A stretch of 64,000 nt of DNA from a virus. Positions 39,475 through 56,682 of this stretch are shown here, piece by piece; within the stretch, counting starts at the first letter, position 1; every line of letters begins with the position of its first letter. Location: IMG/VR virus record IMGVR_UViG_3300044846_003365, positions 1-64,000 of that record. The stretch is one strand, 5' to 3'. The position numbers were made by a program, and so were the translations under genes. The notes beneath the pieces were generated by a model. The model saw only the letters and a list, made by a program, of their open reading frames with translations, was not told the origin of the DNA and searched no databases.

Positions 39475-40858
39475 AGAACCCAGTTCCCCTAGTGTCTGGC
39501 AATCTCCTAGAAGCCAAAGACTTAGCCTTTATGCTACCGCCCACAAAACCAGCGGGGGGTTTGATTAGTAAGGCGGTAAGAGCGTGAACCAAAGCATCTA
39601 CTCTGTCAGGCGACTTACCCTCACCCGGAACCCAGCTAAACATCTGAGACTCTAGGTCAGACAAGTAGCCTATGTGGTGAACTCTACCTTGCTCATACGC
39701 AAGGGTAGTGGGCTCAGCCCTCAAAGCTTTACCATACTTAGAGTGAACTTCGAGAACCTTTATGTTTGGGTCAATGGCGTTGATAGCATTACGAACCAAA
39801 GCCCCACCTTGGTTTACTTCGGCAACAACAGGGCAACCCCACTTACGAGCCATAGCTACAACTTTGTTTGCCCACACATCAGGCGAACCTAAAACAGAAG
39901 CATCTTCTAAAACCCAAGCTTGACGCTTATACAAATCTCTATCCGCAGTAGAAGCACACACCACAATCCCACACTCATCTCTAGGATTCTCGGCTACTGA
40001 AGGGTCTACTCCAATTATTCTTAGTGGAGCTTTAGGAGGCATAGAGTGTTCCCTATGTTGCTCAATCAACTCCTCAGTCCACAAAGCCCCCTCAACATCA
40101 TCAAGCATCTCACCATAAAGTTCTTGTTGAGCTAAGCGTGTTCCTTCATAAACTCCAGTAATAGCATCTAGATAAGCAGAAGATAAGTTTCCAGAGTTGT
40201 CCATAGTTGAACCACGGGACACCCACACCTTGCCAGTTCGCTTAGCCTCATCTAGAAGCGAGTAAAGGATAGGCACACGCTTAGGAGTAGTAGTGGCTAG
40301 AATCTGGGGATTACGACCTAGACGAGTTGCCACACGAAGGTTGTCCCAAGAGGTCATACCAGCAGCATCTGGGTTCTGTCTCCAAGCTGCCAGCTCATCA
40401 GCCCAAGAGTAGTGGGCTTGAACACCACGAAGGGAGTCTGGCTCATCAGCAGTTCCAAGAACAGCGGTATTGCCATTAGGCCAGGTCAGCCTACGCTTGG
40501 AAGGCTCATACAAAGGTCTCTCACTTGGAGGCGACACAGCCAAGATACCACTATCACCTTCGACAATAACATCTCGCACATCTGCTGCAGTTCGAGCTAC
40601 GAGCAAGAACCGCAAGCGACCTTGGCTTGAATCCAATGCTTTAGTTCTAACCCACTCCGCAGCACTCCTAGTCTTACCAGCACCACGACCAGCCAAGAAC
40701 AACCCAACATTCCAAGAGTCATTAGCAGGCGGAATCTGTTCAGGTCTTCCCCAGAAGCTCCAGTCCCAAATCAAAGACTCAGGGTCCATACCAGCTAGGA
40801 CAGCTAAGCGTTCTTCATCTGGGAGTTCCGCAACTATCTGAGCCAGGCTCTTCGGCAT
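39461..40858 (-). CDS. terL: Terminase large subunit
   Basis: AGRGAGKT Walker A, WADE Walker B, TTTP coupling motif, GVDP and DRVDA nuclease aspartates. Confidence 0.95.
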   Translation of the reverse strand: MPKSLAQIVAELPDEERLAVLAGMDPESLIWDWSFWGRPEQIPPANDSWNVGLFLAGRGAGKTRSAAEWVRTKALDSSQGRLRFLLVARTAADVRDVIVEGDSGILAVSPPSERPLYEPSKRRLTWPNGNTAVLGTADEPDSLRGVQAHYSWADELAAWRQNPDAAGMTSWDNLRVATRLGRNPQILATTTPKRVPILYSLLDEAKRTGKVWVSRGSTMDNSGNLSSAYLDAITGVYEGTRLAQQELYGEMLDDVEGALWTEELIEQHREHSMPPKAPLRIIGVDPSVAENPRDECGIVVCASTADRDLYKRQAWVLEDASVLGSPDVWANKVVAMARKWGCPVVAEVNQGGALVRNAINAIDPNIKVLEVHSKYGKALRAEPTTLAYEQGRVHHIGYLSDLESQMFSWVPGEGKSPDRVDALVHALTALLIKPPAGFVGGSIKAKSLASRRLPDTRGTGFFRVR

Positions 40859-40921
40859 CTGAATCCTTACTAAGCGAAAAAGGGCGTGGAAAATACCACA
40901 CCCTTCATCATACCACCTAGC

Positions 40922-41473
40922 TTACGAAATAACTCTGTGGTCTTTACGAATTGGTTTGTAGACTTTGCTCTTGCCATTTTTAGAAGGCTTGTAGCCATAA
41001 CGAGCTAGTCTGAACTGTAAAGCTGAGCTTGTCACTCCAAGGCGCAACGCTAGTCTATAAACTGGCACTCCTTCAACTCTGTTTGCGTAGTCCAATAGCT
41101 TTGTGTATTCCTCTGCCTCTTTACGATAGGTCTGAACGTTCGAGCGAACCAGCCTTGCCTTCGGCTGTAGCTCTAGCAAGCGAGCCAATGTCTCGGCACT
41201 AGGCTCAACATATACAGGCTTTACCTTTTCAATGTGGCGTGGTGGGTCTGGGATAGGTAGTGAACTAATGTTCGCACCGCTAACAGGAAAGTCAACAATC
41301 TGCCTAGCTCTTTCCCTAGTCATACCGCAAGCATTAGAAATACTTGTCAATGTCCAGCCAGCGTTCCGCAAGGCGATTATGTAATCGTTCCTCGCAGGGG
41401 TTCCTTCAATCTTTTCAAAAGCTTTTACTACCTCTGGGGGTAGCTCAACCAGTTTCTTTCTTACATTTGTCAT
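40922..41473 (-). CDS. Tandem helix-turn-helix DNA-binding protein
   Basis: GWTLTSISNACGMTRERARQIV and VYRLALRLGVTSSALQFRL. Confidence 0.8.
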   Translation of the reverse strand: MTNVRKKLVELPPEVVKAFEKIEGTPARNDYIIALRNAGWTLTSISNACGMTRERARQIVDFPVSGANISSLPIPDPPRHIEKVKPVYVEPSAETLARLLELQPKARLVRSNVQTYRKEAEEYTKLLDYANRVEGVPVYRLALRLGVTSSALQFRLARYGYKPSKNGKSKVYKPIRKDHRVIS

Positions 41474-41628
41474 TTAGTGTTTTCCTTTCATAAGACTATG
41501 TAATCCTCGTTTATAACGATTCGATAACAATACTAACCTTTTTCTAATCAAAGCGGTATACTTGTTCGCTTTGAGCGTCAATAAAAAAATCCCCCACCTT
41601 TTGGCAGGGGATTCTTTACTATAACTAT

Positions 41629-42144
41629 TTAGACAATAGGCTTTACATTAGGGTCGTTCTTGAAGATAGCCAAGAAAGTCTCGGCATCAAGTTTTCCAGA
41701 ATCCCCCACCTTATTATCTTTTTGGTAGCTAGCAATAGCAGATAGGGTATTCTCTCCATACCAACCATCTTTATCCTTACCAGCCTGCTCATAACCAAGC
41801 TCCACCAGTCGCCTTTGAAGGTGGTGAATAGTTAGAGACTTTCTTGCTTTCACATTTTTGTAGACTACTGAAGCTAGAGAAACATCATCTACGGAGTTGT
41901 TAGACACAACAGCAGGTCCAGCAGGCTCAGGGGCGGAGTTTAGAATATCGTCCATAGTGACAGACTTAGGCTCACGATACTTGCTCTTAGCTACTGGCTT
42001 AGGCTGTTCCTCAACTACAGGCTCAGGCTCAACGGCAACAGGCTCAGGGGCTACCTCTAGGGTAGGCTCTTCAACAACGGCTACAGGCTCAGTAGGGGTT
42101 AGCTCTGGCTCTACAGCCTCAAATTCAATTTCTGATTCACTCAT
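41629..42144 (-). CDS. Peptidoglycan-binding-domain protein with Pro/Glu-rich N-terminus
   Basis: LQRRLVELGY...DGWYGENTLSAIASYQ...GKLDAET. Confidence 0.75.
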   Translation of the reverse strand: MSESEIEFEAVEPELTPTEPVAVVEEPTLEVAPEPVAVEPEPVVEEQPKPVAKSKYREPKSVTMDDILNSAPEPAGPAVVSNNSVDDVSLASVVYKNVKARKSLTIHHLQRRLVELGYEQAGKDKDGWYGENTLSAIASYQKDNKVGDSGKLDAETFLAIFKNDPNVKPIV

Positions 42145-42164
42145 AGTGTAAATTTTACACTAAT

Positions 42165-42335
42165 TTAGACACGCTGAGCTAAGCCAGCGAAGGCTACGGC
42201 ACTAAGCCCAAGGGCTAATGTCAAAGTTGACAGGTCAGGAGCAAACAAAGCAACTCCTATTGAGAGAACAGCAAATACAACGGCAAGAACAGAAGTCCAA
42301 ACCACATCTTTCATAAGCAACAACCAATTACGCAT
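42165..42335 (-). CDS. Small membrane protein (56 aa)
   Basis: Manual translation MRNWLLLMKDVVWTSVLAVVFAVLSIG..., two hydrophobic segments, GAGG RBS. Confidence 0.6.
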   Translation of the reverse strand: MRNWLLLMKDVVWTSVLAVVFAVLSIGVALFAPDLSTLTLALGLSAVAFAGLAQRV

Positions 42336-42497
42336 CTATTTTTCCTCTTCATCTTTCTTCGGCATTACGACTCCCAACAAAGGGCCGCCATCTTTCCACG
42401 CGTCTTCTTTACTTTTGTCCTTCCGCATCTCAATCCAGCTCAAAGCAACCAGAACTAAAATGGAAAGAACAAGAGTAAAGACTAGGAACTCTAGCAA
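42336..42497 (-). CDS. Small membrane protein (53 aa)
   Basis: TTG start after AGGAG, MLEFLVFTLVLSILVLVALSW... Confidence 0.55.
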   Translation of the reverse strand: MLEFLVFTLVLSILVLVALSWIEMRKDKSKEDAWKDGGPLLGVVMPKKDEEEK

Positions 42498-42505
42498 TCT
42501 ATCTC

Positions 42506-43486
42506 CTAAGCTAAAACTGTTTTACCAGTCTTTCGGTATATGTTAGCTACAACTCTAGCCCAAACTTCGGGCGTTGAGTCATAAGGCTTGTAGCCACCAG
42601 CCCCACCAATCAGAACCCTGCCTTTGGCAAAGCGATTAGCTAGGTCGGCAACAACACTAGACGCACCTTCATAACCTTCGTAGGTATACTTCATACCCCA
42701 AATGTCAGACTCGTGAGCGTCAGCACCCGTAGCTAGAAGAATAACATCAGGCTCGTATTCCTCGACCTTCTGAGCAATCTCGTTGATAGCCCAAGAGAAC
42801 TCAACATCTCCAGAACCTCTCGGCAAAACATAGTTATACCAATGCTTTTCTGGAAGCGAATACTCGTAAGGCTCGTCTTCAAAATACTTAGAGTCATACC
42901 AAGTGTCAGAGTGAGTAGGATACATCCTGTGTCCGTGAATACTGAAAGTAGGTATGTCCGTATCTTCTAGTAGATTCTGAACTCCATCTCCAGCGTTCAC
43001 ATCCCAGTCAATGTAGACTGCCTTCAAACCATTACGCTCGAACTCCTTAGCAGCCCAAGCGAAATCGTTGAAGACGCAAAAGCCTTCACTCCATCCGTAT
43101 TGAGCGTGGTGCTTCGCACCTTGTGGATTGAACCCAACTCTGGCTTCCCCTGAGATAATCTTCTCGACTAGGCGAGCAGTCCCAGAGAACATTTGTAGAG
43201 CGGTATGCCCCATCAGCAGATTCTCTTTATGCCACTCGTATGAAACGCCTTTGTCAATTACTTCCGCAACAAACTTAGGGTCGTGGATGCTTTCCAAACT
43301 TGCTCTGTCGTAGTCAGCAACAGTAGGCTCGATAACCTCAATAGCGTCAGAACCAAGAGAGTTAGATAGCTTTTCTAGGGCGAGCTTAGCCCGTATTGGC
43401 TTAGTAATGTGCGTGCCATCACCAGAACCAAGTTGCCAGTTTAGGTAGTCGTCGCTATACGCAACAAATAACTTTTCGTTGTTCAT
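42506..43486 (-). CDS. Histone-deacetylase-family (AcuC/HDAC-like) deacetylase
   Basis: HHA..SEGFCVFND, IDWDVNAGDG, SIH, YP, GADAH..D, GGGY. Start reassigned to ATG 43486 (GAGGAG RBS). Confidence 0.9.
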   Translation of the reverse strand: MNNEKLFVAYSDDYLNWQLGSGDGTHITKPIRAKLALEKLSNSLGSDAIEVIEPTVADYDRASLESIHDPKFVAEVIDKGVSYEWHKENLLMGHTALQMFSGTARLVEKIISGEARVGFNPQGAKHHAQYGWSEGFCVFNDFAWAAKEFERNGLKAVYIDWDVNAGDGVQNLLEDTDIPTFSIHGHRMYPTHSDTWYDSKYFEDEPYEYSLPEKHWYNYVLPRGSGDVEFSWAINEIAQKVEEYEPDVILLATGADAHESDIWGMKYTYEGYEGASSVVADLANRFAKGRVLIGGAGGYKPYDSTPEVWARVVANIYRKTGKTVLA

Positions 43487-43582
43487 TTCTAACTCCTCTC
43501 TTTTCGTCATTATTTCTATTCTACAACGCAAAGAAAGTTTTGTCAAGTTGCGTGATGAAACAGCTACCCTTTAGCAGGCAGT

Positions 43583-43927
43583 CTAACCTTGCTCAGCTTT
43601 TCTTTCTTTTCTAATTAGGAAGATTGACGCAAGAGAGCCAACAACATAACCAATCATCAAAGACGGAATCCAACTAAACTCAGGCTTCCACCCAACTACA
43701 AAGCCCATTACAACTATGAAAGTCAAAGCCCCCGCAGTTGCTTCAAGGAAAATCTCTAGTCCCAGAAATAAAGGCTTAGGGCTTTTCTTAGAGTGCTTAG
43801 GGCTTATGTAAGTAGACCTAGTGCTTTTCGGAGTGTAGTGATGCTTCCTAAGATGCTTGATAGACCAGATAGCCACAATAGAACCAACGGCAACTAGGAG
43901 AGAGCTAAGAATAATAGCAAACTCCAT
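43583..43927 (-). CDS. Membrane protein
   Basis: Three hydrophobic segments, coupled to 43927..44139. Confidence 0.7.
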   Translation of the reverse strand: MEFAIILSSLLVAVGSIVAIWSIKHLRKHHYTPKSTRSTYISPKHSKKSPKPLFLGLEIFLEATAGALTFIVVMGFVVGWKPEFSWIPSLMIGYVVGSLASIFLIRKERKAEQG

Positions 43928-44139
43928 TACGCAACCACCTTGTTTAGCAGTCTGCTAATTACTGGATACAGCACTAGGAACAGCACCCAAGCCAAACCAA
44001 TAGACCAAAGGTTATCGGCAAAGTTCCCACCATAACCAGCACCCAAAGCAATAAGCACAGCGAAAATAGCCCAGTAGATACCAAAAATCAACGGCAAGGT
44101 AGCCAAGCCAACCAAACCTCTAAGAATTGCTTTTACCAT
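43927..44139 (-). CDS. Membrane protein
   Basis: Two hydrophobic segments, GACGAAAGGA RBS and its own TTGACA promoter. Confidence 0.7.
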   Translation of the reverse strand: MVKAILRGLVGLATLPLIFGIYWAIFAVLIALGAGYGGNFADNLWSIGLAWVLFLVLYPVISRLLNKVVA

Positions 44140-44208
44140 CTTTTTTCCTTTCGTCGTTTTGTTGCTCTTCTATTGTATCTAATTAGACACAGCTTGTCAA
44201 GTATTTAT

Positions 44209-44370
44209 TTAGACTACTTTCCAGCCCAGTATTGAGCCAGCAAAGAATCTGTCCTGCCAAAACGCTAAATTAGCGGGAAAGTAAGGGGCAGGGTAGGTTA
44301 TCTGTCTAGTAGTTCCGTCAAGGTAAATTACCTCAATCGTTCTAGTCTGGTTTTCGGTTTCGTTTATCAT
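44209..44370 (-). CDS. Hypothetical protein (53 aa)
   Basis: Manual translation MINETENQTRTIEVIYLDG..., GAAAGGA RBS, TTGACA promoter upstream. Confidence 0.6.
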   Translation of the reverse strand: MINETENQTRTIEVIYLDGTTRQITYPAPYFPANLAFWQDRFFAGSILGWKVV

Positions 44371-44428
44371 TTTAGTCCTTTCTCTGTATTTATAGTATCA
44401 GCTAAAGGCAAACTTGTCAAGCACTTTA

Positions 44429-44698
44429 CTAAAGTTTTTTCGTGTCCTCGGCAATTATTTCCAAAGCCCTAGCAATACCCTTTAGGTTTTCCGCAGACCT
44501 TCTACCTAATTTGATAGAGCCAACCACTCCAACTAAAGTCCCAAAGAATAATAGCCAAGCAACAAAAAAGCCCACAGACCCAGTTAGAACCTGAATAAAT
44601 AAATAAGCCCCGTAGCCCAAGAACCCAAGCAGGAAAGCTAAGGCAATAAGCATTGTCAGCCTAAGTCTTTTTGTCCACCTCTCGGCTTGCTCTGTCAA
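44429..44698 (-). CDS. Membrane protein
   Basis: Two hydrophobic segments. Confidence 0.6.
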   Translation of the reverse strand: MTEQAERWTKRLRLTMLIALAFLLGFLGYGAYLFIQVLTGSVGFFVAWLLFFGTLVGVVGSIKLGRRSAENLKGIARALEIIAEDTKKL

Positions 44699-45092
44699 AA
44701 GAGTTAGAGAAACCTCTCTCAGTATTTTTTCTCTATCTTTATCAGAAATCTGAATCTTCTTCTCCTAGTTGCCCACTAGATATAAAAGCAAAAGCGAAAA
44801 GTGTTAGGAAAACTAATGCGGTAGTTAGGAACAAACCCAAAAGCATAAACCCAACTAGAATCCAAAACCAAAGTTCCATAGTTATCTTTCCTAAAACTTA
44901 CTTTCGTAAGCCTTCTCAATCTGAGCTTCTAGTTTCCTTTCCCAAGCTAGAACTCTTTCTTCCTTACAAGACAAGCAAATCTGTCGTGTCTGGTGCTTCG
45001 CCATAGCTGGAACTAGAGTTTGTTCTCCGCACTCGTAGCAAGCAATCAAAACTTTATTTTCCATACTCATCTCCTTTTCGAGATAAGTATAG

Positions 45093-45347
45093 CTAAATCA
45101 GCGGTATTTGTCCAGCGCGACGCGCAAACTCTGTTTCAATGTTTTTAGCAAGCCAAGCGTAGTCGCCCTTAGACGCAACCTCAGCCTGCTCAACAAAGTC
45201 AAGAGCAACTGCCAAATCAACCAACAGTTCTGTCGGCATCTCTAATTCATTTTGGACATCTAGCACGCCAGAAGTTCCCTGCTTGTCATAATCTCCAAGC
45301 AAAGCCATAATTTCTGCGTCAGACATCTCCGCAATGTTTTTATTCAT
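45093..45347 (-). CDS. Hypothetical protein
   Basis: 84 aa, GAAGGA RBS. Confidence 0.65.
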   Translation of the reverse strand: MNKNIAEMSDAEIMALLGDYDKQGTSGVLDVQNELEMPTELLVDLAVALDFVEQAEVASKGDYAWLAKNIETEFARRAGQIPLI

Positions 45348-45460
45348 CTCAGTCCTTCTTCGAACACAACAACTTTATTCTACCACGCGTGGAAGAACTC
45401 TTACCCTTCCCGGATGGCAAAGAAGAAAGCGGGAAGACCTGAGTCGTCCCGCATCATCTT

Positions 45461-45784
45461 TTACTGATAAAGAAAGCCACCATAGGGGTCAGCCTTCTCC
45501 AAAGCCAACTCGAACTGAGTGTTCAAGTTGTATTTCGTAGCCCAACCTGTCTTCACCTTCGCAGGTGCTTTCCAAGTCGCAGCTTTTATCAAGTCCCCAG
45601 TTTCCTTCTCAACGAAGGCAAATACAGACCTGCTTCCCAAGTTCTCGTAGCCTCGCAGGTTGGAAGAAATAACAATCTTGTCAAACTTCCTACCTGACTC
45701 AACTTCGAGCTTGTAGAAGTGGCTTCCTTCTTCGGCATTGAACTTTTGCTCAACGGCAGAGCAGTAATCCCAAGCTACGGACAT
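45461..45784 (-). CDS. Conserved small phage protein (GRKFDKI...KAATWKAPAK family)
   Basis: VFAFV...TGDLIKAATWKAPAK...ADPYGGFLY, a motif recognised from phage hypothetical proteins. Confidence 0.75.
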   Translation of the reverse strand: MSVAWDYCSAVEQKFNAEEGSHFYKLEVESGRKFDKIVISSNLRGYENLGSRSVFAFVEKETGDLIKAATWKAPAKVKTGWATKYNLNTQFELALEKADPYGGFLYQ

Positions 45785-45966
45785 TAGGCTACAACAATCG
45801 TTCCAGTTAGAGACCAGCTCACCTTAGCCCTCTTGTCGCCTTCAAGACCCTTTAGAGTTGCCTCTAATACTTCCTGAGCCTTCTCGTAGCTGTGAACTTC
45901 ATAAATCGGCTCTATTGTCCCAGTTGCGCTCTGAATTTTTATTGCTATTGAATTTATATTTACCAT
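45784..45966 (-). CDS. Hypothetical protein
   Basis: 60 aa, GAAAGGA RBS, own TTGACA promoter. Confidence 0.6.
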   Translation of the reverse strand: MVNINSIAIKIQSATGTIEPIYEVHSYEKAQEVLEATLKGLEGDKRAKVSWSLTGTIVVA

Positions 45967-46077
45967 TTGTTTCCTTTCTCTCGGTATCTATACTATAAAG
46001 CTTTTTTAGCTTTTTGTCAAGTTTATTTGGGAAAAAGAAAACCCCGCATCTCTGCGGGGTAATCTTATGGTCAGTCT

Positions 46078-46713
46078 TTATTCGGTAGCTAAGATACGGG
46101 TATAAGTTATCTCCCCGTAAACAGCCCCGAACTCGGAAATTGACCTGTAAGAAGTCGTTTGACCAGGCCTACCTATATGTATCATCACATCTGGGGAAAT
46201 GTAAATGCCAATATGTCCTGCTGTGTCGGCGTTATGACCAAATGCCACTAAGTCTCCACGCATAGGACTATCAACTCTTACTCCAGAGTTTTTCTGAGAG
46301 CTAGCTCCGTGATATAGTTCCACACCTAGACCTCCATAAAACCACTTCACCATGCCAGAACAGTCCCAGCCTCCCGGAGTGCTTCCGCCGAAGACATACC
46401 ATGTCTTCCCTACTTGCGCTTCCAAAAGGCGAATTCGCTCTTCCATGGCTATCTTGTTTTTATAGGCATCTTCTCTGTGTTTCTTTAGAGCTACCTCAGC
46501 GATGATTCTTTGTCTCTCAGCCTCTTCTTCCTCAATCATCTGAGCGATATATTCTTCACTCATAAAGGAAGGGGAAGGCTCCATAGCTCCCATCATGTAC
46601 GATGTGCTACTAATCGTTGCGTCATTGGTTTCTATTGGTTTTTCCTCCACTACAGCAGCTACTGCTCCAGTAGTGAGAGAAAGGGTGATACTTGATGATA
46701 TCAACCATCTCAT
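46078..46713 (-). CDS. Secreted NlpC/P60 peptidoglycan peptidase
   Basis: Signal-like N-terminus, YVFGG..GWDCSG, GDLVAF, HIGIY, MIH. Confidence 0.9.
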   Translation of the reverse strand: MRWLISSSITLSLTTGAVAAVVEEKPIETNDATISSTSYMMGAMEPSPSFMSEEYIAQMIEEEEAERQRIIAEVALKKHREDAYKNKIAMEERIRLLEAQVGKTWYVFGGSTPGGWDCSGMVKWFYGGLGVELYHGASSQKNSGVRVDSPMRGDLVAFGHNADTAGHIGIYISPDVMIHIGRPGQTTSYRSISEFGAVYGEITYTRILATE

Positions 46714-47016
46714 TTGCGCCTACCTTTCCTTTGAGAGTAATTTCTCGGCGTTTATTGGTTTGGTTCTCCCAATCTTGTATTCAGTTATAAACGACTTCAT
46801 CTCTGAAGTCGTGTTTATATTTTACCTCACCTAGCTTCTTTTTTCAAGTTTGAACCCCCAAATCTGACAAAAAATCTTCCTAGATGCTAGTAAAACACTA
46901 GAAAGTAAGGAAAAACCCCTTTTGTTTCGAGTTTGGGCGTTTTGCGCGTGGAAAAAGACAGACCCTTCCCGGTCCCTCCTCCAGGGCCTGGAAGAAGAAT
47001 TACATAAGAAAAAACC

Positions 47017-47217
47017 CTAAGAGTCGAAATCTCTTAGGGCTTGTCGCTCGCTGGCGTTGCGAGTTCTAGCTCGCTTCTCTCGCCTATTGGCGTGAGAGCC
47101 ATTAGCACCTGAGCTATTACGCTGAACTAATAGCGTGTGTAGCTGAAATGCCTCAGCCTTGCGTCTAGCATCATTTACTAAACCCAGCGACTGCTTCTTT
47201 TTCTTTGCCATACTCAC
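47017..47217 (-). CDS. Small basic hypothetical protein
   Basis: 66 aa, GAAAGGTGGTG RBS. Confidence 0.65.
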   Translation of the reverse strand: MSMAKKKKQSLGLVNDARRKAEAFQLHTLLVQRNSSGANGSHANRREKRARTRNASERQALRDFDS

Positions 47218-47358
47218 ACACCACCTTTCTAATAATTAGCGTATCCGTTGGCTACCCGTCTATAATAACACACTACACACCCACCCGTCAAGTCCTGTGG
47301 CGTGTGTGGCAAAGGGGCGTGCCGTCAAGTAGTAAAGGGCGTGCCGTCAAAAAGGGTT

Positions 47359-47476
47359 GCCCCCCACTAAGTATCGAGAAAGAAAACCTTAGTGAGGGGC
47401 GTGCCGTTGGGAAAAAGTGGTGGAACCCAACGGCGGTTGGTTGCGTGGCTATGGGGGATAGCAAACCGCAACCAAG
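47359..47476 (-). ncRNA. Candidate three-hairpin RNA with anti-RBS loops
   Basis: Three back-to-back stems with minus-strand loops UCCCCC, UUCCACCACUUUUU and GUUUUCUUUCUCGAUA. Confidence 0.5.
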
Positions 47477-47481
47477 TCTAT

Positions 47482-47658
47482 TTAGTAATTTTCATCTACC
47501 CAATCAATTACATCTTGTAGCTTATCGGCTGAACTGACAAACTTTAGGAACTCGCCGTCTTCCATTAGCAAGCTGGACATTACCGTTGTTGCGCTTTCTA
47601 CTTCTCCAAGCACCACCCGTAGGCTCAGCGTGCTTAGCAGTTGTCCCGTTGAAATCAT
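47482..47658 (-). CDS. Hypothetical protein (58 aa)
   Basis: Manual translation MISTGQLLSTLSLRVVLGE..., GACGAAAGGA RBS and TTGACA promoter. Confidence 0.6.
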   Translation of the reverse strand: MISTGQLLSTLSLRVVLGEVESATTVMSSLLMEDGEFLKFVSSADKLQDVIDWVDENY

Positions 47659-47682
47659 TTTATTCCTTTCGTCATTTATATT

Positions 47683-47970
47683 CTACACCCGTGCCGTTGA
47701 ATTGTCAAGTTCAACTTCCCAAGAGTAAGGAACCCGAAGCTCTTCTCTTTCCATAAGCAAGCCCGCCTCTTGAACAATTACATAGCTCGGCACATCAAGA
47801 GCGTAAGCTATGTTCTCAACTATGTCTGAGGAAGCTTCTTTCTTGCCTCGCTCAACTTCGCTGAGATACCCAAGAGAAATGTTTGACTTAGTAGACAACT
47901 GCCTAAGAGTCATACCAATCCTGTTCCTACGCAAGTGAACTATGTGTCCAATAGATTCGTGTAATCTCAC
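47683..47970 (-). CDS. XRE-family HTH regulator, ClgR-like
   Basis: TLRQLS...ISLGYLSEVERGKKEASS resembles actinobacterial ClgR. Confidence 0.8.
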   Translation of the reverse strand: MRLHESIGHIVHLRRNRIGMTLRQLSTKSNISLGYLSEVERGKKEASSDIVENIAYALDVPSYVIVQEAGLLMEREELRVPYSWEVELDNSTARV

Positions 47971-48341
47971 TCGACAATCCTTTCATTTCCGTATTCTGCT
48001 TGTAGAACTTTTGCTTGCCCAATCGCATCATCTAGCGAGTGGTAAGGCTCGGAATAATATTCCGAATCCTTGCTGTCCATAACCTCGAACCAAGAGTTGT
48101 TTACCCAAGTAAACATCTCTTCTCCTAAAGCGTGAAACTTTTCTAAATCTTCATCTGTCTTTACGCCAATACCTTCGAGCTGGTCTGTGTAGCGAATTAC
48201 AATCTGGCTCTCCAAGTCTGGAGAGTAGTGAATACGCATCTCGCCATTACGAATAACATAAAAGCGTGGCTGTTCGGAATCTTGCCAAACTAGCTCGTGC
48301 CCTGCTTCGTTCGTGTAGAACGATGAGTCTTGTCTAATCAA
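47967..48341 (-). CDS. Hypothetical protein
   Basis: 124 aa, overlapping start/stop with neighbours. Confidence 0.7.
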   Translation of the reverse strand: MIRQDSSFYTNEAGHELVWQDSEQPRFYVIRNGEMRIHYSPDLESQIVIRYTDQLEGIGVKTDEDLEKFHALGEEMFTWVNNSWFEVMDSKDSEYYSEPYHSLDDAIGQAKVLQAEYGNERIVE

Positions 48342-48618
48342 CTTCTTCCTCCCTAATCAAAATGAAATCGTTTGGTGTTGTTTCTTCGCTGTAATACTCG
48401 TCAATAGTTTCGCCTCTGTGCTTGTGGACATAAGCAAATACCCAACTATCAAACGCATACCAATCCTTGTCATCACTTAGCAAGCCACTATCCAAAGCTT
48501 CATCTTCTTCTTTGGTGTTGATAATTCCTATGTTTACGGCAACAGGAGCCTTGTCCTTCGGGTCGTCAAGAAATCTCATATACGCCCCAACTACTTCAAT
48601 GTCGTCTGGTGTAATCAT
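48334..48618 (-). CDS. Hypothetical acidic protein
   Basis: GAAAGGA RBS. Confidence 0.65.
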   Translation of the reverse strand: MITPDDIEVVGAYMRFLDDPKDKAPVAVNIGIINTKEEDEALDSGLLSDDKDWYAFDSWVFAYVHKHRGETIDEYYSEETTPNDFILIREEEVD

Positions 48619-48656
48619 TATTGTCCTTTCTCTAAAACAATTTTATCAGGTATAAA

Positions 48657-48902
48657 CTAATTTGTCAAGTTGTATGACTGAAGCAAGCTCGCGAGCGCGT
48701 CCTCTCGCTCAACAAACTTTTCCCTAAGGTCTTCGTTGTCTCGATAGCTTAGCCAGTTGTTGCTCAGCTCGTCCCAAGCTACTTCGGAATCAAACTTTGC
48801 GTCCAAGGTGTCAGGGTCTACTCCCCAAGCGTTGCTTGACTCGTCCCACCTAACTACAAAGTGATACTGAATACTTTTTCCTGTTGCTATTGCGTTTGTC
48901 AT
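48657..48902 (-). CDS. Hypothetical protein
   Basis: ATGA overlap with the upstream gene. Confidence 0.65.
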   Translation of the reverse strand: MTNAIATGKSIQYHFVVRWDESSNAWGVDPDTLDAKFDSEVAWDELSNNWLSYRDNEDLREKFVEREDALASLLQSYNLTN

Positions 48903-49174
48903 ACTCTAATTTCCTCTCCTTGGTCGTTTACTACTACAAACTGATTCTCTAAAGCTATGTATCCATCGTGGCTAGTTGTGTCCTCGACATAGTCGATGGC
49001 ATTACTACGCACATACTCTAGAAACAATTCCTCATCGAACAGGTCTGTTCCATTGTCGGCAAGTATTTCTAAATACTGCTCTAGAGTTTGCTTGGTGTCC
49101 CAAGTCAAAGTTAGTTGGGCATTTATTGTCTGCCCAACCTTTTTTACAAATTCATTTACAATCTTGTCTGACAT
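48899..49174 (-). CDS. Hypothetical protein
   Basis: GAAAGGAG RBS. Confidence 0.65.
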   Translation of the reverse strand: MSDKIVNEFVKKVGQTINAQLTLTWDTKQTLEQYLEILADNGTDLFDEELFLEYVRSNAIDYVEDTTSHDGYIALENQFVVVNDQGEEIRV

Positions 49175-49362
49175 TTGAACTCCTTTCTAAAGTTCGTGTG
49201 CTTCCCAGTCGCCAGTAAAACCTTCGGCTTCAGTTTCGTATTCGTCCTGTTGCCCATTAGTAATTACTTCGTAAGCTTTGTTATAAGCTTCATCTCTGTC
49301 CTTTGCCTCAACAGTTGTGGTGTGAAATACTGTTTCATAAATTCTCACTTCCCACTCAGCCA

Positions 49363-49614
49363 TTAGTCCTCGTCCTCTTCTTCTTCATCTGAAGACACAA
49401 GTCCATAAACATAATCGTTTACAGTTTCACGAGCATCGTCCCATAGACTTTCGTGGTCAAGGTCATCTGCTGTTTGGTCGAACTGCTCTGCTGTTGGGCT
49501 AGGTGTGCCATCAGCAAATTCAAAATGCTCTGCCAGAAAATACTGAAAAATAATTGACTGGTCTTTGTCCTCAATCTGTTCCAACTGAGAAATCAAATCT
49601 TTTACTGTTGCCAT
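49363..49614 (-). CDS. Hypothetical acidic protein
   Basis: ACGAAAGGA RBS, own promoter. Confidence 0.65.
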   Translation of the reverse strand: MATVKDLISQLEQIEDKDQSIIFQYFLAEHFEFADGTPSPTAEQFDQTADDLDHESLWDDARETVNDYVYGLVSSDEEEEDED

Positions 49615-49677
49615 TTGCTTTTCCTTTCGTAGTTGTTTTATTATAAAGGTGTTTGACTAAAAAGTCAAATCCATTTG

Positions 49678-49989
49678 CTAGGAAACCCCTAGCTTTTTGG
49701 TTGCGACTTCGTAGACTTTTTCTAGTCTTGTTCTGACTGAGTCGGCAAGTTTTAGGTCGTCCAGCATTTCGCCAAAGTGCCCTGTGATAACTTCCAAGTC
49801 ATCGCCATCAAACTCTGCTTCCTCAAAGTGCCACCAAAGTCCATCATTACCAGTTAGCCCAGAAAACTCTGAGTCCAACATTTTCTTTAGGTAGTCTGAC
49901 ACTTGTTCGTCAGTTAGCTTGCTTGCGTGTTCGTTCTCCTCTGGATAGAACTCGAACTGAACATTTAGAATTACTTTTCTTTCAGTCAT
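49678..49989 (-). CDS. Hypothetical protein
   Basis: Start reassigned to ATG 49989 (GAGGAGGAG RBS). Confidence 0.6.
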   Translation of the reverse strand: MTERKVILNVQFEFYPEENEHASKLTDEQVSDYLKKMLDSEFSGLTGNDGLWWHFEEAEFDGDDLEVITGHFGEMLDDLKLADSVRTRLEKVYEVATKKLGVS

Positions 49990-50338
49990 TAGTTCTCCTC
50001 CTCGACAGTCCACTCAACATTGTCCCAGCTCACGCCATCAAGGTCATTACTTCTTCTTGACAGTAAGTCAATCAGCGTGTCAAGTTTTGTATCTAACGCC
50101 TTCAGGTCTTCGACATTTGTTGCGTAATAGTCGAAGGTAATTCTTCCGCTAAAATCTTTCATCTGCTTTTTCCTTCCTAGTTGTTAGCAAACTTTTTTAT
50201 TGACTCTACTTGTTTGTCGTCATCGTGTTTCCAATAGTCTTCGCAACTATCGCAAATCTGATATTCTTTTTCTTCATCGAGAAACTTTATGTGGTGAGTT
50301 GCTGAGTCGAAGCAACCTGACATATCGCACTCGAACAT

Positions 50339-50605
50339 TTACTTACCTGCCTGCTGTGATAAGAATCTCGAAGCGTCAAAAGTAAAAGCAAGATGACTCT
50401 TCTCAAATACTCTGTCGTCCTCTAGGCACTCAGACAAAACTGAAACTCTTGCGAGCGCAAGTGAAACGCTAGGGTAGTATTCGACCCACTCGTTCACAAC
50501 ATAGTCAGTCCAAGTAAGCTTGTAAGACTTCTCTCCACCTTTGGGTAAGAACTCTGAAATCTCTACGCCACACTCGCCAAATAAATCTAATGAAATTTTT
50601 TCCAT
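50339..50605 (-). CDS. Hypothetical protein
   Basis: Start reassigned to ATG 50605 (AAGGAAAGTGG RBS). Confidence 0.65.
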   Translation of the reverse strand: MEKISLDLFGECGVEISEFLPKGGEKSYKLTWTDYVVNEWVEYYPSVSLALARVSVLSECLEDDRVFEKSHLAFTFDASRFLSQQAGK

Positions 50606-50693
50606 AACCACTTTCCTTCTTTCTGTCATTTTTGTTGCTTGTATAATAATACAGGCTAGCTTACCTTTTGTCAAGTAAGCTAGCCCGCATTTT

Positions 50694-50969
50694 TTAGTAT
50701 TCTGAGTCGCTCTCAATCCAAGCGTCTAGATGGTGATTCTCAACCAAAGCTCTTACTGGAGCTGTGTTGCTTCCTTTGTAGGAAGTGCCTTCTGGCAGTT
50801 CTACTTCGGAATCCCAGTCGCCAGCATTAGCTAGCTCAATAGCCTCGATACAAGGCTTGACCATAAACTTCGGAACTGGAGGATAGTGATTACCCTGTAA
50901 GTGCCACTCTATTTGTTGGCTTAGTGCCAACTCGCTTGAGGCGATATCAACTGCTGTTCTGAATCCCAT
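50694..50969 (-). CDS. Conserved small actinophage-type protein (HLQGNHYPPVP)
   Basis: HLxxNHYPPVP...HHLDAW, start ATG 50969. Confidence 0.7.
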   Translation of the reverse strand: MGFRTAVDIASSELALSQQIEWHLQGNHYPPVPKFMVKPCIEAIELANAGDWDSEVELPEGTSYKGSNTAPVRALVENHHLDAWIESDSEY

Positions 50970-51028
50970 TGGAGTCCTTTCTTTAGACTCCATAAGGATA
51001 ACAAACTATTTGGTAAAAGTCAAATCTA

Positions 51029-51268
51029 TTACTTGACAACTTTCATTGTTGAAAAGTCTGGCTTCGCCTTTAGCTCACCAATAATGTTGTCGTGTCCTTC
51101 GGCAAAGTTCTCTCTGCTGTCTGACTTAGCAAACAGTCCAGCAAAGGCACTAGAGGCAATCTGACGAGCTTCGCCATCAGTTTCAGACTCTACTTCCAGC
51201 TCAACTACAATCTGAACCTTGCGAACCTTCTTCTCGAAGCCACCTTCGAAATCTTCTTTTTTAGCCAT
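51029..51268 (-). CDS. Hypothetical protein
   Basis: Start ATG 51268 (AAGGAG RBS). Confidence 0.65.
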   Translation of the reverse strand: MAKKEDFEGGFEKKVRKVQIVVELEVESETDGEARQIASSAFAGLFAKSDSRENFAEGHDNIIGELKAKPDFSTMKVVK

Positions 51269-51437
51269 AAGTATCAACTCCTTTTTATCGAACTTATCTA
51301 ACAATTAGTTTACACGCAAAAACGAGATGCGTCAAGGTCGCAGTTGCGTGGAAAAAACCCTACCCTTCGACACGAGCGACCTTCGCATTTTCGGGAAAAG
51401 AAAAACCCCCAGCTTTCGCTGGGGGCTTTCGCTAGAA

Positions 51438-51731
51438 CTATCTTGCGACTTTTACAAAGTCGTAATCAGTTGTGTAGCGAGTTGCTTCGTAGACCTCTGG
51501 GAAGTCGGTAGCCAACTTCTTTGAGTCTACATAGGTGTTGGTTCGTGATACCAACTTGAAAGCCACTACGCCACCAAAGGTAGCCTCTGTGGACTGACCT
51601 AGAAGCTGACGCAACTTAGCCTCTGAGTCCTTCTTGAGAGCCTCTGCCTTGTCTGCCAAAGCCTTAGCCTCCACGAAGTCTGCTAGAGCCTTGCGAGCCT
51701 CTGAGTTGAAACCAAGTTCTAATGAACTCAT
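51438..51731 (-). CDS. Hypothetical coiled-coil protein with structured 5' leader
   Basis: Start ATG 51731, VDSKKLATDFPEVYE motif, terminator at about 51402-51430. Confidence 0.7.
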   Translation of the reverse strand: MSSLELGFNSEARKALADFVEAKALADKAEALKKDSEAKLRQLLGQSTEATFGGVVAFKLVSRTNTYVDSKKLATDFPEVYEATRYTTDYDFVKVAR

Positions 51732-51814
51732 ATGAAACACCACTTTCGAAAGTTTCAGACTTTTCAGTCTGGGTCGCTGGAGAAGTCCTTTTGACTTCTT
51801 TCCCAACTAATACA

Positions 51815-51836
51815 ACTATAAAGCATACCTACGACA
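51815..51836 (-). promoter_or_regulatory. PafBC/RecA-NDp-type promoter TGTCGT-N10-TATAGT with overlapping TTGACA -35
   Basis: Minus strand CTTGACAAATGTCGTAGGTATGCTTTATAGT. Confidence 0.7.
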
Positions 51837-51915
51837 TTTGTCAAGTTCATTTGAACTTTTTTTATAACAGTTTGATAACGGAAACCCCGCCCGAAAGCGG
51901 GGCTTCCAAATCAAG

Positions 51916-52122
51916 CTAGGACACTACTTGGTAGTCCACAGTAGGCACAACAGAGCTGGCATAAACGCCTAGCTCGTAGATACCAGCGTGTCGAACTGCC
52001 AAGGACTGAGCATCCTCACCCTGAAAAGTTTTGTTCTCGCTTGGAAAGTCGTGAACCAAAACTGTCCACACACCAGCTTCCTCGAAAACTGAAACTCGCT
52101 TGCTCGCATATGAATTGACCAT
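51916..52122 (-). CDS. Hypothetical protein with structured 5' leader
   Basis: Start ATG 52122 after GAAAGGTGGT. Confidence 0.6.
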   Translation of the reverse strand: MVNSYASKRVSVFEEAGVWTVLVHDFPSENKTFQGEDAQSLAVRHAGIYELGVYASSVVPTVDYQVVS

Positions 52123-52204
52123 ATACTCGACCACCTTTCGACCACTAGGGTCTTAGAGCTGGAGAGCTTCTTGTGAAACTCGTTCCCAACTTTGCTACTC
52201 CTAT

Positions 52205-52304
52205 ATTTTACCAGCAGCCTACGACATTTTTACTATAAAACAAAAAAATATTTATAACAGTTTGATAACGGAAAAGTTTGTGATTTTAGCACGACCCACT
52301 GACA
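52205..52304 (-). promoter_or_regulatory. Two tandem PafBC-type promoters (52205-52226, 52283-52304) flanking an OmpR-like box
   Basis: TGTCGT-AGGCTGCTGG-TAAAAT and TGTCAG-TGGGTCGTGC-TAAAAT, with no TTGACA -35. Confidence 0.7.
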
Positions 52305-52406
52305 TTTCTGAAACTTTTACATAAGCCAAAGGGTCTAAGTTTTTCCACGCAGGAGGTTTCCAAAAAAAAATGCCAACCCTTTCGGGCTGGCACTCTTTTC
52401 TATTTC

Positions 52407-53057
52407 TTAGAGAACTTTGTAAAGGTTATACTCGTCAGTTTTATCCCAGTCTACATTTCCTTCTTCGTCTAGGACAGCACCAGCGTTCTTGTAATCTTCG
52501 GAAGTAATCTCTCTGTAAGTGTCGGAAAGTATTTCCCCACCTTCAATCTCAGCCCTACCAAAGAAAGCCATACCTTCTTCGGCATACTGATAAATTATTC
52601 TTACATCATAGACTTCAGAAAGTCGTCTAAAGAACTCTAAAGCTGGACTCCACGCAGTAGAAGAACCAATCCCAAGACTGAACTTTCCATTACCCAAATC
52701 TGTAATCTCGGTAATTGAAACTCCACCAAGTTGGTCTAAGTCCCACTTAGTTCCCCAGTTTCCGATATTCCAGTCATACCAGTTGTCAAAAGTTCCAGAA
52801 GAGCCTTTAGCCCACTCCAAAGTCTTTTGCTCGATAGACTTAGTTTTATCTTCTTCTACACCAATAAAGTTTGGTGTTGGGAAAAAGTTATCAAAAGAAA
52901 AGATGTTCGGCTTCTCTTCAAACTTTTCGTAGTTCATAATTTCTTTGTTCCAGTCGCTTCCAATTTTGAAAGTTCCTTCAGCACCCTTTGCCAATATTGT
53001 TTCTAGGGTTTCTTTGTCCCCAATAATATCAACATCTAAATCACACCAGTTTGGCAT
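52407..53057 (-). CDS. YubB/DUF1281 ferredoxin-like domain protein
   Basis: MPNWC...WYDWNIGNWGTKWD...TAWSP...YAEEGMAFFG. Confidence 0.8.
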   Translation of the reverse strand: MPNWCDLDVDIIGDKETLETILAKGAEGTFKIGSDWNKEIMNYEKFEEKPNIFSFDNFFPTPNFIGVEEDKTKSIEQKTLEWAKGSSGTFDNWYDWNIGNWGTKWDLDQLGGVSITEITDLGNGKFSLGIGSSTAWSPALEFFRRLSEVYDVRIIYQYAEEGMAFFGRAEIEGGEILSDTYREITSEDYKNAGAVLDEEGNVDWDKTDEYNLYKVL

Positions 53058-53198
53058 ATTAGTTTCCTTCTTTCTCTGTAATTGCTATTTCGAGTTTGGT
53101 TATGTTTGCTATCGCTTGGTCAAACTCTTCCCAAGTTTCAAATGTCAAAGTAATCATTTTTTCCTTCCTCGTATTTCTATTATAGAGCTTTTTTCAAA

Positions 53199-53456
53199 TT
53201 AGTCAAGTTCATAATCATAATCTTCGTAATTCGCTTCTTCGTAATCTCTTTTGTCTTCGGCAGTCGAGCTACGGAAATGAACCACGCCACAAAACTCGCA
53301 CTCCACTTCGTAGTTGCCCCAGTCGTCAGTTGCGGAAAGATTTGCTTCATTAGTTTTTCCGCACTCTTCGTTTCCGCAAACAAACTCGTCATACGGAACT
53401 TCTACTGAATAAATACCAGACCCCATCATTGAACCTGCTGGATAATTGCTTGACAT
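53199..53456 (-). CDS. Small Zn-ribbon protein
   Basis: CGNEEC...CEFC, start ATG 53456. Confidence 0.65.
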   Translation of the reverse strand: MSSNYPAGSMMGSGIYSVEVPYDEFVCGNEECGKTNEANLSATDDWGNYEVECEFCGVVHFRSSTAEDKRDYEEANYEDYDYELD

Positions 53457-53479
53457 TTTTTCCTTTCTTATTTCTTGGT

Positions 53480-53692
53480 CTACAAGTAGCAATCGCTACA
53501 CTTAGGGCTTCGCTCTAAGCTCTGAATCCACTCGTGAGTTTCTTGGTTTACTGTGTATTCGCCACCACACTTGTAGCAAGTAAAGTCATATCTAACTTCA
53601 CCCTTTGGGGCTACTCTGCGATTACCACGCAAAGCCAAGTCGTTTAGTTCCTGCTCGCTTAGTTCAGGATTCTCTTTTGCTAATCTACTCAT
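53480..53692 (-). CDS. Small Zn-ribbon protein
   Basis: CYKC...CSDC, start ATG 53692 (ACGAAAGGA RBS). Confidence 0.65.
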   Translation of the reverse strand: MSRLAKENPELSEQELNDLALRGNRRVAPKGEVRYDFTCYKCGGEYTVNQETHEWIQSLERSPKCSDCYL

Positions 53693-53714
53693 TTGTTTCC
53701 TTTCGTTAGTATTC

Positions 53715-53797
53715 AGTATAAAGCTACCTACTGACATTTGTCAAGTTGTTAGGTAATTCTTTTCTTCGTGTTTAGAAACTACACCCACCCACCGACA
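53715..53797 (-). promoter_or_regulatory. Two tandem PafBC-type promoters (53715-53736, 53776-53797)
   Basis: TGTCAG-TAGGTAGCTT-TATACT and TGTCGG-TGGGTGGGTG-TAGTTT. Confidence 0.7.
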
Positions 53798-53847
53798 TTT
53801 TTGGAATTGTCAAAGGGTAGCTCTTTTTTCACGCAGACCCCCCGAAG

Positions 53848-54010
53848 AAAAAGTTGAGCAGTTTTACAACTTGCTCAGGTTGTTATTCCTGTATACCTCA
53901 CCAATAGAGGTGTTTAGGAAACTTAGGTAAGCCTTTTTACAACTTGCTCAGGTTGTTTTGTTCGCTTCAGCTTTAGAGTCTTGCGACGCAGTATTTGGGC
54001 GAACAAAGCT
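53848..54010 (-). ncRNA. Candidate structured RNA with two repeated H-type pseudoknot units
   Basis: AACAACCTGAGCAAGTTGTAAAA occurs twice. Each is an ACAAC/GTTGT stem whose loop can pair downstream (TGCTCA, GCTTA). Two further hairpins flank them. Confidence 0.55.
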
Positions 54011-54013
54011 TTA

Positions 54014-54190
54014 TTACTTTTCAGCTTCAATAGCTAAAGCAGTTTCCCACTTTTTGCTATCGTAAGCTTCGTCAAACCTTTTGTAATCTTCGCTTGACCA
54101 ATCTTTCGTGTCAATCAGAAGAATCTTCCCGTGTCCATAGCTTTCGTCGTCAGCTATCCAAAGCGTGTTAGGTGAAAGTTCTTTTATCAA
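54014..54190 (-). CDS. Hypothetical protein (58 aa)
   Basis: TTG start overlapping the upstream TGA, MIKELSPNTLWIADDESYG... Confidence 0.55.
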   Translation of the reverse strand: MIKELSPNTLWIADDESYGHGKILLIDTKDWSSEDYKRFDEAYDSKKWETALAIEAEK

Positions 54191-54597
54191 ATCTTCACCT
54201 CTTCCTTACGCTTTCTACTAGCCCATCCGTCTCCAGCGAACTCCATCTCGTAGTCCCAGACCTTACCAAGAGCAACAGCGACATCCGTTGAGATGTCAGT
54301 CCAGCTCTCGCTCTCACGCCATAAGTTGCTAAGGTCAGGGTAAGTTGGTAAGTCCTCATCCGTTGAGTAGTCCCCAAGCACCAAGACTCTATCGCCTGTC
54401 CAGCGACCAGACAAGCCGTCAAACTTGTTCCAGTCTCCACCACCCCTTGCCGGTGAGGTCATAAGTAAAAGATATAACGCGTCAGACATTGAACCCTCGC
54501 AACCCGTTTGCTCGTATTGCTTAGCACCCAAGCCGAGCGGATAAGAACTAACCTGCTCTTGCTTATCAAGATTTACTAATTTGTGATACTGTCCCAT
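54187..54597 (-). CDS. Conserved phage hypothetical protein (MGQY...NLDK...GRWxGDR...GDY family)
   Basis: Recognisable motif set, own promoter and RBS. Confidence 0.75.
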   Translation of the reverse strand: MGQYHKLVNLDKQEQVSSYPLGLGAKQYEQTGCEGSMSDALYLLLMTSPARGGGDWNKFDGLSGRWTGDRVLVLGDYSTDEDLPTYPDLSNLWRESESWTDISTDVAVALGKVWDYEMEFAGDGWASRKRKEEVKI

Positions 54598-54696
54598 CTG
54601 TTTCCTTTCGTCGTTGTTTTATTGTATACCTTATCCGTCTCTTTGTCAAGTTTATTGGCAGGGGGGAGAGAGACAGGTTCTCCCCCCGCCAAGCCT

Positions 54697-56544: not shown

Positions 56545-56682
56545 TTTTTTCTCCTGTCTCTGATTCACTAAGTAAATTGTAAAGCTTTTAGCTTCATTTG
56601 TCAAGTTCTAGGGGGTGTGTGGTGAGTGCCTAAACAACTATGAAAAAGACACCCACCCCACTTCTGCCTAATCTGGAAGGAT

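Follow-up and report, generated by a model that had tools for sequence, protein, structure and literature searches.

A conserved three-hairpin RNA with pyrimidine-rich loops in the terminator slot of a regulator operon of an uncultured lake actinophage

The window analysed here, a 64,000-nucleotide (nt) stretch with which a 79.7-kb IMG/VR virus record (IMGVR_UViG_3300044846_003365; CheckV completeness 47%) begins, contains on its minus strand, directly behind a small open reading frame (ORF), a module of three consecutive hairpins. Comparison with related phages revealed this module of about 115–135 nt to be a conserved, sense-strand structured RNA, and the hairpin cluster to fill the terminator slot of an operon encoding an XRE-type regulator. 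The element is kept in the window phage and in at least 16 related lineages. The conserved property of its loops is their composition, not an anti-Shine–Dalgarno (anti-SD) word. We tentatively read the element as a terminator-embedded RNA of the untranslated region at the 3′ end (3′ UTR) whose C/U-rich loops would be functional, analogous to the small RNA (sRNA) 6C without being a member of that family.

On the minus strand, to which all features below belong unless stated otherwise, the minimum-energy fold of positions 47475..47359 consists of exactly three hairpins (−68.7 kcal/mol, z −6.42; equalled by none of 200 shuffled sequences), confirming a preliminary description of this DNA that had placed three stems here, 2 nt apart. 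Hairpin 1 (47437..47475; −16.2 kcal/mol) combines an outer stem (UUGGUUGCG/CGCAACCAA), an internal loop and an inner stem (GCUAU/AUAGC), and exposes the loop CCCCC (47457..47453). Past a CC spacer follows hairpin 2 (47403..47434; stem GCCGUUGGG/CCCAACGGC; −12.4 kcal/mol) with the 14-nt loop UUCCACCACUUUUU (47425..47412), and past an AC spacer hairpin 3 (47359..47400; −21.3 kcal/mol), whose stem of 13 base pairs (bp; GCCCCUCACUAAG/CUUAGUGGGGGGC) includes one U–G pair and whose 16-nt loop reads GUUUUCUUUCUCGAUA. The first two loops were as previously described, whereas the 12-nt loop reported for hairpin 3 is only the 5′ part of the actual one. Hairpin 3 is succeeded by a tail, AACCCUUUUU (47349..47358), with an imperfect U-tract (family consensus UUCCCUUU). 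The fold of the plus strand was weaker (z −2.69). In a sliding-window stability scan, the element region did not rank among the 15 most stable of the genome; stability alone is thus not its distinguishing trait.

Searches for DNA similar to the element returned no match in 50,697 phage records, in the nearest named relative (Actinomycetia phage DSL-LC01, a lake phage assembled from a metagenome, with a major capsid protein 73% identical) or, using blastn, in 80 terminase-linked loci. For the majority of relatives, these terminase-fetched loci, with their 10-kb flank, do not extend as far as the XRE region. Locus searches with the 58-amino-acid (aa) protein encoded upstream of the element and with a 211-aa protein likewise found none. 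A second locus set was assembled via alignment of the XRE protein, and it was here that pyrimidine-rich loops were tested systematically. The whole window element aligns with three relatives, L220, L223 and L230, all of which display the same order: a weak homologue of the 58-aa ORF, hairpins A, B and C, then UUCCCUUUUGACGGCACGCC as the tail and lastly a gene like the downstream 64-aa one of the window. The loop UU(U)CCCCCAA belongs to their hairpin A, a U-rich loop to hairpin B (GCCGUCAG/CUGACGGC) and, after an AC spacer, the loop CCCCCC to hairpin C (GCCCCCUAACUG...CGGUUAGGGGG). A covariance model, R1, built from these four sequences (the window, L220, L223 and L230) retrieved 30 full-length matches (20 distinct) from the XRE-linked loci, exclusively on the sense strand and with E-values from 3e-42 to 0.5, and a single weak match from 995 kb of terminase-linked loci.

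In the R1-fitted alignment, 92.1% of the cells at paired positions were indeed base-paired, compared with 61.4% in shuffles, and 32 of the 34 pairs were altered on both sides; as the alignment was fitted to the model structure, these pair counts are somewhat inflated, with the controls being far lower. The covariation score amounted to 0.608 vs. 0.161; none of 500 shuffles reached 0.608, and slid controls stayed at or below 0.131. Compensatory pairs are already displayed by an unfitted MAFFT alignment. All 12 pairs of hairpin 1 (helix 1) change on both sides, with 87.7% of cells paired, as do six of the eight pairs of hairpin 2 (helix 2; 94.5% paired), although hairpin 2 is missing in nine of the 20 sequences. 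For hairpin 3 (helices 3–5), 99.4% of the basal cells are paired. The alignment further holds 43 G–U cells (hand count), which would be A–C mismatches on the other strand. The matches on the sense strand only and the weaker plus-strand fold bear out the earlier proposal that the minus strand carries the structured RNA.

The element starts 0–4 nt past a stop codon, or overlaps it by a few bases, in 11 of the 16 loci with an upstream ORF. This ORF is the last gene of the XRE operon and varies across lineages from 42 to 202 aa. No promoter of the element's own was detected in 14 of 16 checkable loci, L220 being the only relative with one directly upstream. In the window, the stretch from 47680 to 47291 is free of promoter-like sites; instead, a sigma-70-type promoter (TTGACA-17-TAGAAT, 47680..47708), situated inside the 3′ end of the gene for the XRE-type helix-turn-helix regulator (47970..47683; HTH_3, PF01381, 1.5e-8), is the one that drives the hairpin element, together with the 58-aa gene. 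The 58-aa ORF (47482..47658; ribosome-binding site (RBS) GAAAGGA), to which no function was assigned, ends with a TAA codon (47484..47482) 3 nt before the covariance-model match (47478). With hairpin 1 beginning 6 nt past this TAA (<80 nt) and with spacers of 2 nt (<15 nt), the arrangement corresponds to that of hairpin-cluster terminators. In five loci (the window and four relatives), the next promoter follows 53–93 nt downstream of the element; in the window it was located by promoter scan at 47262..47291 (TTGACG-18-TATTAT), 53 nt past the model match, and serves the next transcription unit. The stem of hairpin 3 is homologous to the canonical intrinsic terminator of relatives, where its loop ranges from AUAA to C6 and UUUUGCUUU, UUUUACUUUU or UUCCCUUUU directly follows: L212, for instance, combines the stem with the loop AUAA and the tail UUUUGCUUU, and L226 with a 7-nt loop and the tail UUUUACUUUU. 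Lacking a promoter of its own, starting 3 nt past a stop codon and occupying a terminator position, the element gives no support to the discrete RNA gene that had been envisaged.

If the RNA acts through its loops, as previously suggested, some loop property should be conserved, and pyrimidine richness is indeed kept in about 20 distinct relatives. Family loops are 69–73% pyrimidine, compared with a background of 45%, and contain only 9–17% G. The C content reaches 41–42% in the loops of hairpins 1 and 3 (background, 21%), and runs of at least four C occur in 12 of 17 distinct hairpin 1 loops and nine of 15 hairpin 3 loops; the loops of hairpin 2 are U-rich, not C-rich. Among hairpins of at most −18 kcal/mol, pyrimidine tracts fell into loops 20 times and purine tracts six times, even though purine tracts are twice as common; among those of at most −20 kcal/mol, C5 runs did so 13 times and G5 runs once (hand count). 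Pure or near-pure C5–6 loops were also seen in many other strong hairpins and terminators of the family (GUU-CCCCC-AAC; AGA-CCCCCC-UCU between A- and U-tracts), e.g. at L261:1342, L264:111, L261:2890, L129:1177, L251:828 and L219:406, among others. Pyrimidine-loop hairpins initially noted in L154, L181, L184 and L128 were discarded as ordinary terminators whose U-tracts had been misread as loops.

The closest relative, L123, is syntenic with the window (terminase 93% identical). Directly after its XRE gene (L123:2826-2890) lie two hairpins with unlike stems and an identical 11-nt loop, UAAUUCCUUUC, which exactly complements GAAAGGAAUUA and is perfectly anti-GAAAGGAA (p 0.017). The XRE stop codon is located within the loop of the first hairpin, a 17-nt core (AGAUAAUUCCUUUCUCU) is common to both, and AUUUCUUUUG follows the second. 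These hairpins are not picked up by the covariance model, and a search with the twin-loop pattern TAATTCCTTTC yielded, besides L123's own contig, only unrelated direct repeats.

Loop complementarity to RBSs was scored for 92 SD-bearing start regions, called on the coding strand, against 300 composition-preserving shuffles of each loop. The pairings named in the preliminary description exist, and each is the top match of its loop. Loop 2 has its first-ranked partner among the 92 in the SD before 47211, with which it forms 11 bp, including two G–U (−14.4 kcal/mol), ATG 47211 being a more likely start for the downstream 64-aa gene than GTG 47217; it also pairs with the SD before 51731 (−14.1 kcal/mol); the 12-nt core of loop 3 pairs with the SD before 45966 (−15.4 kcal/mol). 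Compared with shuffles, however, loops 1 and 2 did no better (p 0.18–0.74 and 0.36–0.87, respectively), and neither did the 12-nt core of loop 3 (p 0.05–0.18). Only the complete 16-nt loop 3 surpassed its shuffles (minimum p 0.007, mean p 0.017, overall p 0.007–0.02); since it was the best of 36 intergenic hairpins tested alike in the genome, its p of about 0.01 does not withstand multiple testing. One loop for each RBS class of the phage, as had been proposed, is thus not what the data indicate. One match is notable in its own right, that of loop 2 with its top partner, the SD belonging to the gene next downstream (p 0.007 vs. shuffles for that region alone), but homologues are without this match, which is therefore lineage-specific or fortuitous rather than a kept feature.

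Several further comparisons gave no sign of systematic pairing. TCCTTTC in loops was not enriched over its permutations, loop matches to the 16S tail numbered 36 on the sense and 39 on the antisense strand, ranks of the start regions of next and previous genes were scattered, and the start region of the 58-aa gene itself gave p values of 0.18–0.82. Exceptions are the hairpin 1 loops of L226 (UUCCUUUC; z −5.0) and L264 (CCCCUUUCU; z −3.9), which, along with the twin hairpins of L123, make three related lineages with perfect anti-RBS loops of at least 8 nt. Elsewhere in the window, we noticed a terminator loop, UUUUCAUAGUUGUUU (56657..56621), with 12-nt complementarity to AAACAACUAUGA (58245..58234), which spans the start codon of its own operon's first gene; no other of the 92 start regions suits this loop as well (p 0.03 vs. 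shuffles). For another loop, at 54692..54655, the best-pairing start region belongs to the gene immediately upstream (56544).

In the reading that we tentatively prefer, the module would stop transcription of the XRE operon and leave behind a nuclease-resistant, structured 3′ end or a 3′ UTR fragment. Hairpins 1, 2 and often 3 would present their large C/U-rich loops as single-stranded contact sites, which they probably are. By analogy with 6C, these loops might most plausibly base-pair with purine- or G-rich RNA, e.g. ribosome-binding regions. Pairing of loop 2 with the downstream SD would block translation of the 64-aa gene on read-through transcripts, or could act in trans.

A number of observations weigh against this reading. 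Tested against the canonical SD, 46 distinct family loops had a mean z of −0.03 relative to shuffles, which lends no support to the idea of anti-SD loops throughout the family. In L223 and L230, no match was seen between the loops and the SD in front of the 64-aa-like gene downstream, and CCCCC finds almost no partners among the GAAAGGA-type RBSs of this phage. Because shuffled loops mostly pair as well, the loop–RBS complementarity is largely compositional, reflecting pyrimidine-rich loops that meet purine-rich RBSs. A simple terminator scan did not call hairpin 3 with its tail, AACCC parting the hairpin from UUUUU, and the pair counts of the fitted alignment carry the inflation mentioned above. 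That transcription ends here, that a stable 3′ fragment results and that any loop pairs are inferences. Strain identity was considered as a sign of selection on the hairpins and rejected: when contigs from four lake metagenomes were aligned to 46700..48100, no strain differences were listed in a block of ~540 nt (46987..47526) including the hairpins, but as this block also covers the 64-aa gene, its identity reflects recent shared ancestry, not selection.

A serious rival, which we regard as possible rather than probable, holds that the module is a plain compound terminator and 3′-end stabiliser, its pyrimidine-rich loops being partnerless and due to composition, nuclease avoidance or history. 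Loops of 10–20 nt weaken hairpins, yet hairpins 1 and 2 retain them while their stems co-vary. A terminator alone would account for the place of the cluster between two transcription units, for the homology of hairpin 3 to canonical terminators with a loop that varies freely from AUAA to C6, and for the absence of hairpin 2 from nine of 20 family members. It would equally suit loops whose pairing with RBSs stays at the level of shuffles, and hairpin clusters (<15 nt apart, <80 nt from the stop codon) are reported to be common as terminators (PMC8355165). Harder to accommodate are the conserved pyrimidine content of 69–73% with C runs in 12 of 17 hairpin 1 loops, the strand-specific bias of the loops (13 vs. 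1 for C5 and G5 runs, 20 vs. 6 for pyrimidine and purine tracts) and the identical 11-nt loops that L123 holds on two different stems. The other terminators of this phage, moreover, are single hairpins with small loops (e.g. CGAAAG, GAAAAG), and each neighbouring early unit runs from a promoter to a single GC-rich hairpin with a U-tract.

In a more far-reaching reading, a stable mimic of the 6C class would be released from the 3′ end of the regulator operon and, through its C5–6 and C/U-rich loops, capture G-rich RBSs of host mRNAs, taking over a host regulon and arresting host functions early in infection; the loops would, in addition, tune the phage's own early genes in some lineages. For 6C itself, C-rich loops have been found to pair with G-rich RBSs without a chaperone (PMC6486639). 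Its targets in mycobacteria, where it is called B11, include dnaB and panD. For the phage element, we consider such a role unlikely.

The full model of the preliminary description, a trans-acting multi-target silencer with a loop for each class of the phage's own RBSs and a function in early-gene or host shut-off, has in our estimation quite a low probability. Although the named duplexes are the top matches of their loops, and although 98% of shuffles fit the generic GAAAGGA RBS less well than the 16-nt loop 3 does, loops 1 and 2 equal their shuffles across the 92 start regions, and a p of 0.01 is unremarkable for the best of 36 hairpins. The perfect anti-GAAAGGAA loop of L123 and the strongly anti-SD hairpin 1 loops of L226 and L264 speak for the model, whereas the family mean does not depart from shuffles, L223 and L230 show no joint change of loops and neighbouring SD, CCCCC is essentially without a cognate RBS in this phage and a dedicated promoter is lacking. 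An RBS-class-specific silencer is therefore weakly supported.

Very doubtful, too, is a platform on which the loops recruit protein, be it Rho (via C-rich, rut-like loops), an antitermination factor of the lambda nut or HK022 put kind or the Arg-rich 64-aa protein encoded downstream. The location of the element behind an XRE (cro-like) regulator gene and its C-rich, G-poor loops would be in line with this idea, as would the identical loops of L123, which fit sequence-specific recognition; the wide variation of loop sequences between lineages is better explained by composition-driven pairing. The gene for the small Lys/Arg-rich protein (47017..47211) has an unusually long SD (AGAAAGGUGGUG) and a canonical terminator (47042..47012), and its product bears KKKK at the N-terminus and NRREKRARTRN at the C-terminus. 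In the window as in L220, L223 and L230, this gene lies behind the element, but L128 and L123 possess the gene without the element, and the protein matched no Pfam or PHROG family and no known RNA-binding family.

The preliminary description had also drawn attention to two TTGACGGCACGCCC repeats behind the hairpins, which are present at 47350..47337 and 47328..47315. The boundary of hairpins 2 and 3 is spanned by a third copy, AACGGCACGCC, and ACGGCACG occurs five times in the window, compared with 0.59 expected. The first TTGACGGCACGCCC copy recapitulates hairpin 3's 5′ arm (ACGGCACGCCCYUYACUA), and it could pair with the 3′ arm of this hairpin to form a weaker alternative. The repeat motif ACGGCACGCCCC is the conserved stretch at which the 3′ arm of hairpin 2 gives way to the 5′ arm of hairpin 3. 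A scan of viral contigs with the TTGACGGCACGCCC 14-mer gave single chance matches only. In lake metagenomes X4 and X9, a strain has 47282..47348, i.e. 67 nt with both TTGACGGCACGCCC repeats and the −35 box, swapped for 14 nt (AACAGTCAAGCCTG, plus strand) that rebuild TTGACT 17 nt from TATTAT. Since a natural strain thus lacks both repeats while retaining hairpins and promoter, the repeats are dispensable, and a place for them in the core of the RNA is not supported. In the 58-aa ORF, seven of the nine listed differences among lake variants affect third codon positions (hand count), as expected for a real gene.

A related motif, ACGGCNNGCC (core GGCNNGCC), is partly palindromic, sometimes perfectly so (ACGGCTAGCCGT), and forms arrays of 3–8 copies spaced by 14 or 22–23 nt within and just after the element. 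These arrays are confined to one subfamily, with sites in the window (47315..47408 and 47688..47698) and downstream of the element in L212, L213, L215, L216, L220, L223, L226 and L230. The motif could be a protein site or the remnant of a duplicated terminator 5′ arm. A similar cluster at 60.6–61.1 kb was tried as a set of operators and rejected, as its sites fall within coding sequence (Asn-Gly codons). That the element acts at the DNA level, be it as an iteron or operator array, as an origin or as a recombination site, with hairpins as by-products of inverted binding sites, is scarcely credible: the window does hold three copies in or after the element and one, AACGGCACGGG (47698..47688), in the spacer of the upstream promoter, and hairpin A of L223 is built from two inverted copies, but about half of the family members lack the motif and still keep the hairpins, the natural strain does without the two downstream copies, the 43 G–U cells and sense-only matches point to RNA, and a bias of 63 sense to six antisense sites in 238 kb would be unusual for a palindromic operator.

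The phage itself, an uncultured actinobacterial phage from a lake, is a siphovirus with every gene on the minus strand, among which those for tape measure, Dit, a 693-aa major head protein, portal and terminase were identified, and its DNA is also present in lake-water metagenomes. The element resides in an early-type block of small genes (43.5–54.5 kb) with ~12 near-consensus TTGACA-17-TAnnnT promoters on the minus strand, and GAAAGGA is the sequence of most RBSs. Within the same block, at 50691..50648, a 19-bp hairpin (AUGCGGGCUAGCUUAC...GUAAGCUAGCCUGUAU) includes in its loop region the −35 element TTGACA of the promoter at 50674..50646, such that terminator and promoter are interlocked. In the head module, a 2772-aa ORF (25252..33570) had no PHROG match at 1e-5.

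Regulatory RNAs encoded by phages are poorly known, and to our knowledge none has been described for phages of freshwater Actinobacteria. Should the loops prove functional, the element would represent a family of RNAs that is uncatalogued, is backed by covariation and occurs in abundant, uncultured actinophages of fresh water, and would join transcription termination with 6C-like, loop-mediated regulation. It provides a concrete case of a terminator whose loop may carry information. Even if the loops are inert, it is a well-defined, conserved compound terminator that is useful for annotating these genomes.

The hairpins of lambda nutR and HK022 put are likewise structured RNAs that come immediately behind a cro-like (XRE) gene, ahead of the genes that follow. 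The resemblance to these is one of position, and the last hairpin of our element is terminator-like, not antiterminator-like. Repeated hairpins with pyrimidine-rich, anti-SD-like loops are shared with the cuckoo/alpha-r14 RNAs of Alphaproteobacteria (RF02344); those, however, are stand-alone genes from another phylum with a fixed loop motif (CCUCCUCCC), whereas the phage element, which their model does not match, conserves composition only. In the icaR mRNA of Staphylococcus aureus, a UCCCC motif in the 3′ UTR can pair with an SD (PMC3868564). Here, too, a C-rich motif lies in the 3′ UTR of a transcript encoding a transcriptional regulator, but pairing with the transcript's own 5′ start region is unsupported for the 58-aa gene (see above), and icaR belongs to another phylum and shows no sequence relation.

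Judged by sequence and structure, the element appears to stand outside every Rfam family (no match at E≤1 in 40000..55000, at E≤10 in 47240..47720 or at E≤5 in seven homologous loci), as kin to both C-rich-loop sRNAs and hairpin-cluster terminators. With 6C (RF01066) it shares a multi-hairpin structure, an actinobacterial setting and exposed C-rich loops; the 6C model, searched over the same three ranges at the same thresholds, gave no match, and we do not count the element as a member. While 6C is a stand-alone unit, the element is phage-encoded, lies in a 3′ UTR without a promoter of its own and has three hairpins, the second with U-rich loops and the last doubling as terminator. Hairpin clusters are known to act as terminators directly after stop codons (PMC8355165; WebGeSTer DB, PMC3013805), and the element resembles them in its hairpins less than 15 nt apart immediately past a stop codon, its GC-rich last stem and its location between two transcription units, and perhaps in its imperfect U tail. 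It differs from them in loops that are unusually large and pyrimidine-rich, and in keeping its three-hairpin architecture and loop composition across lineages with differing upstream genes.

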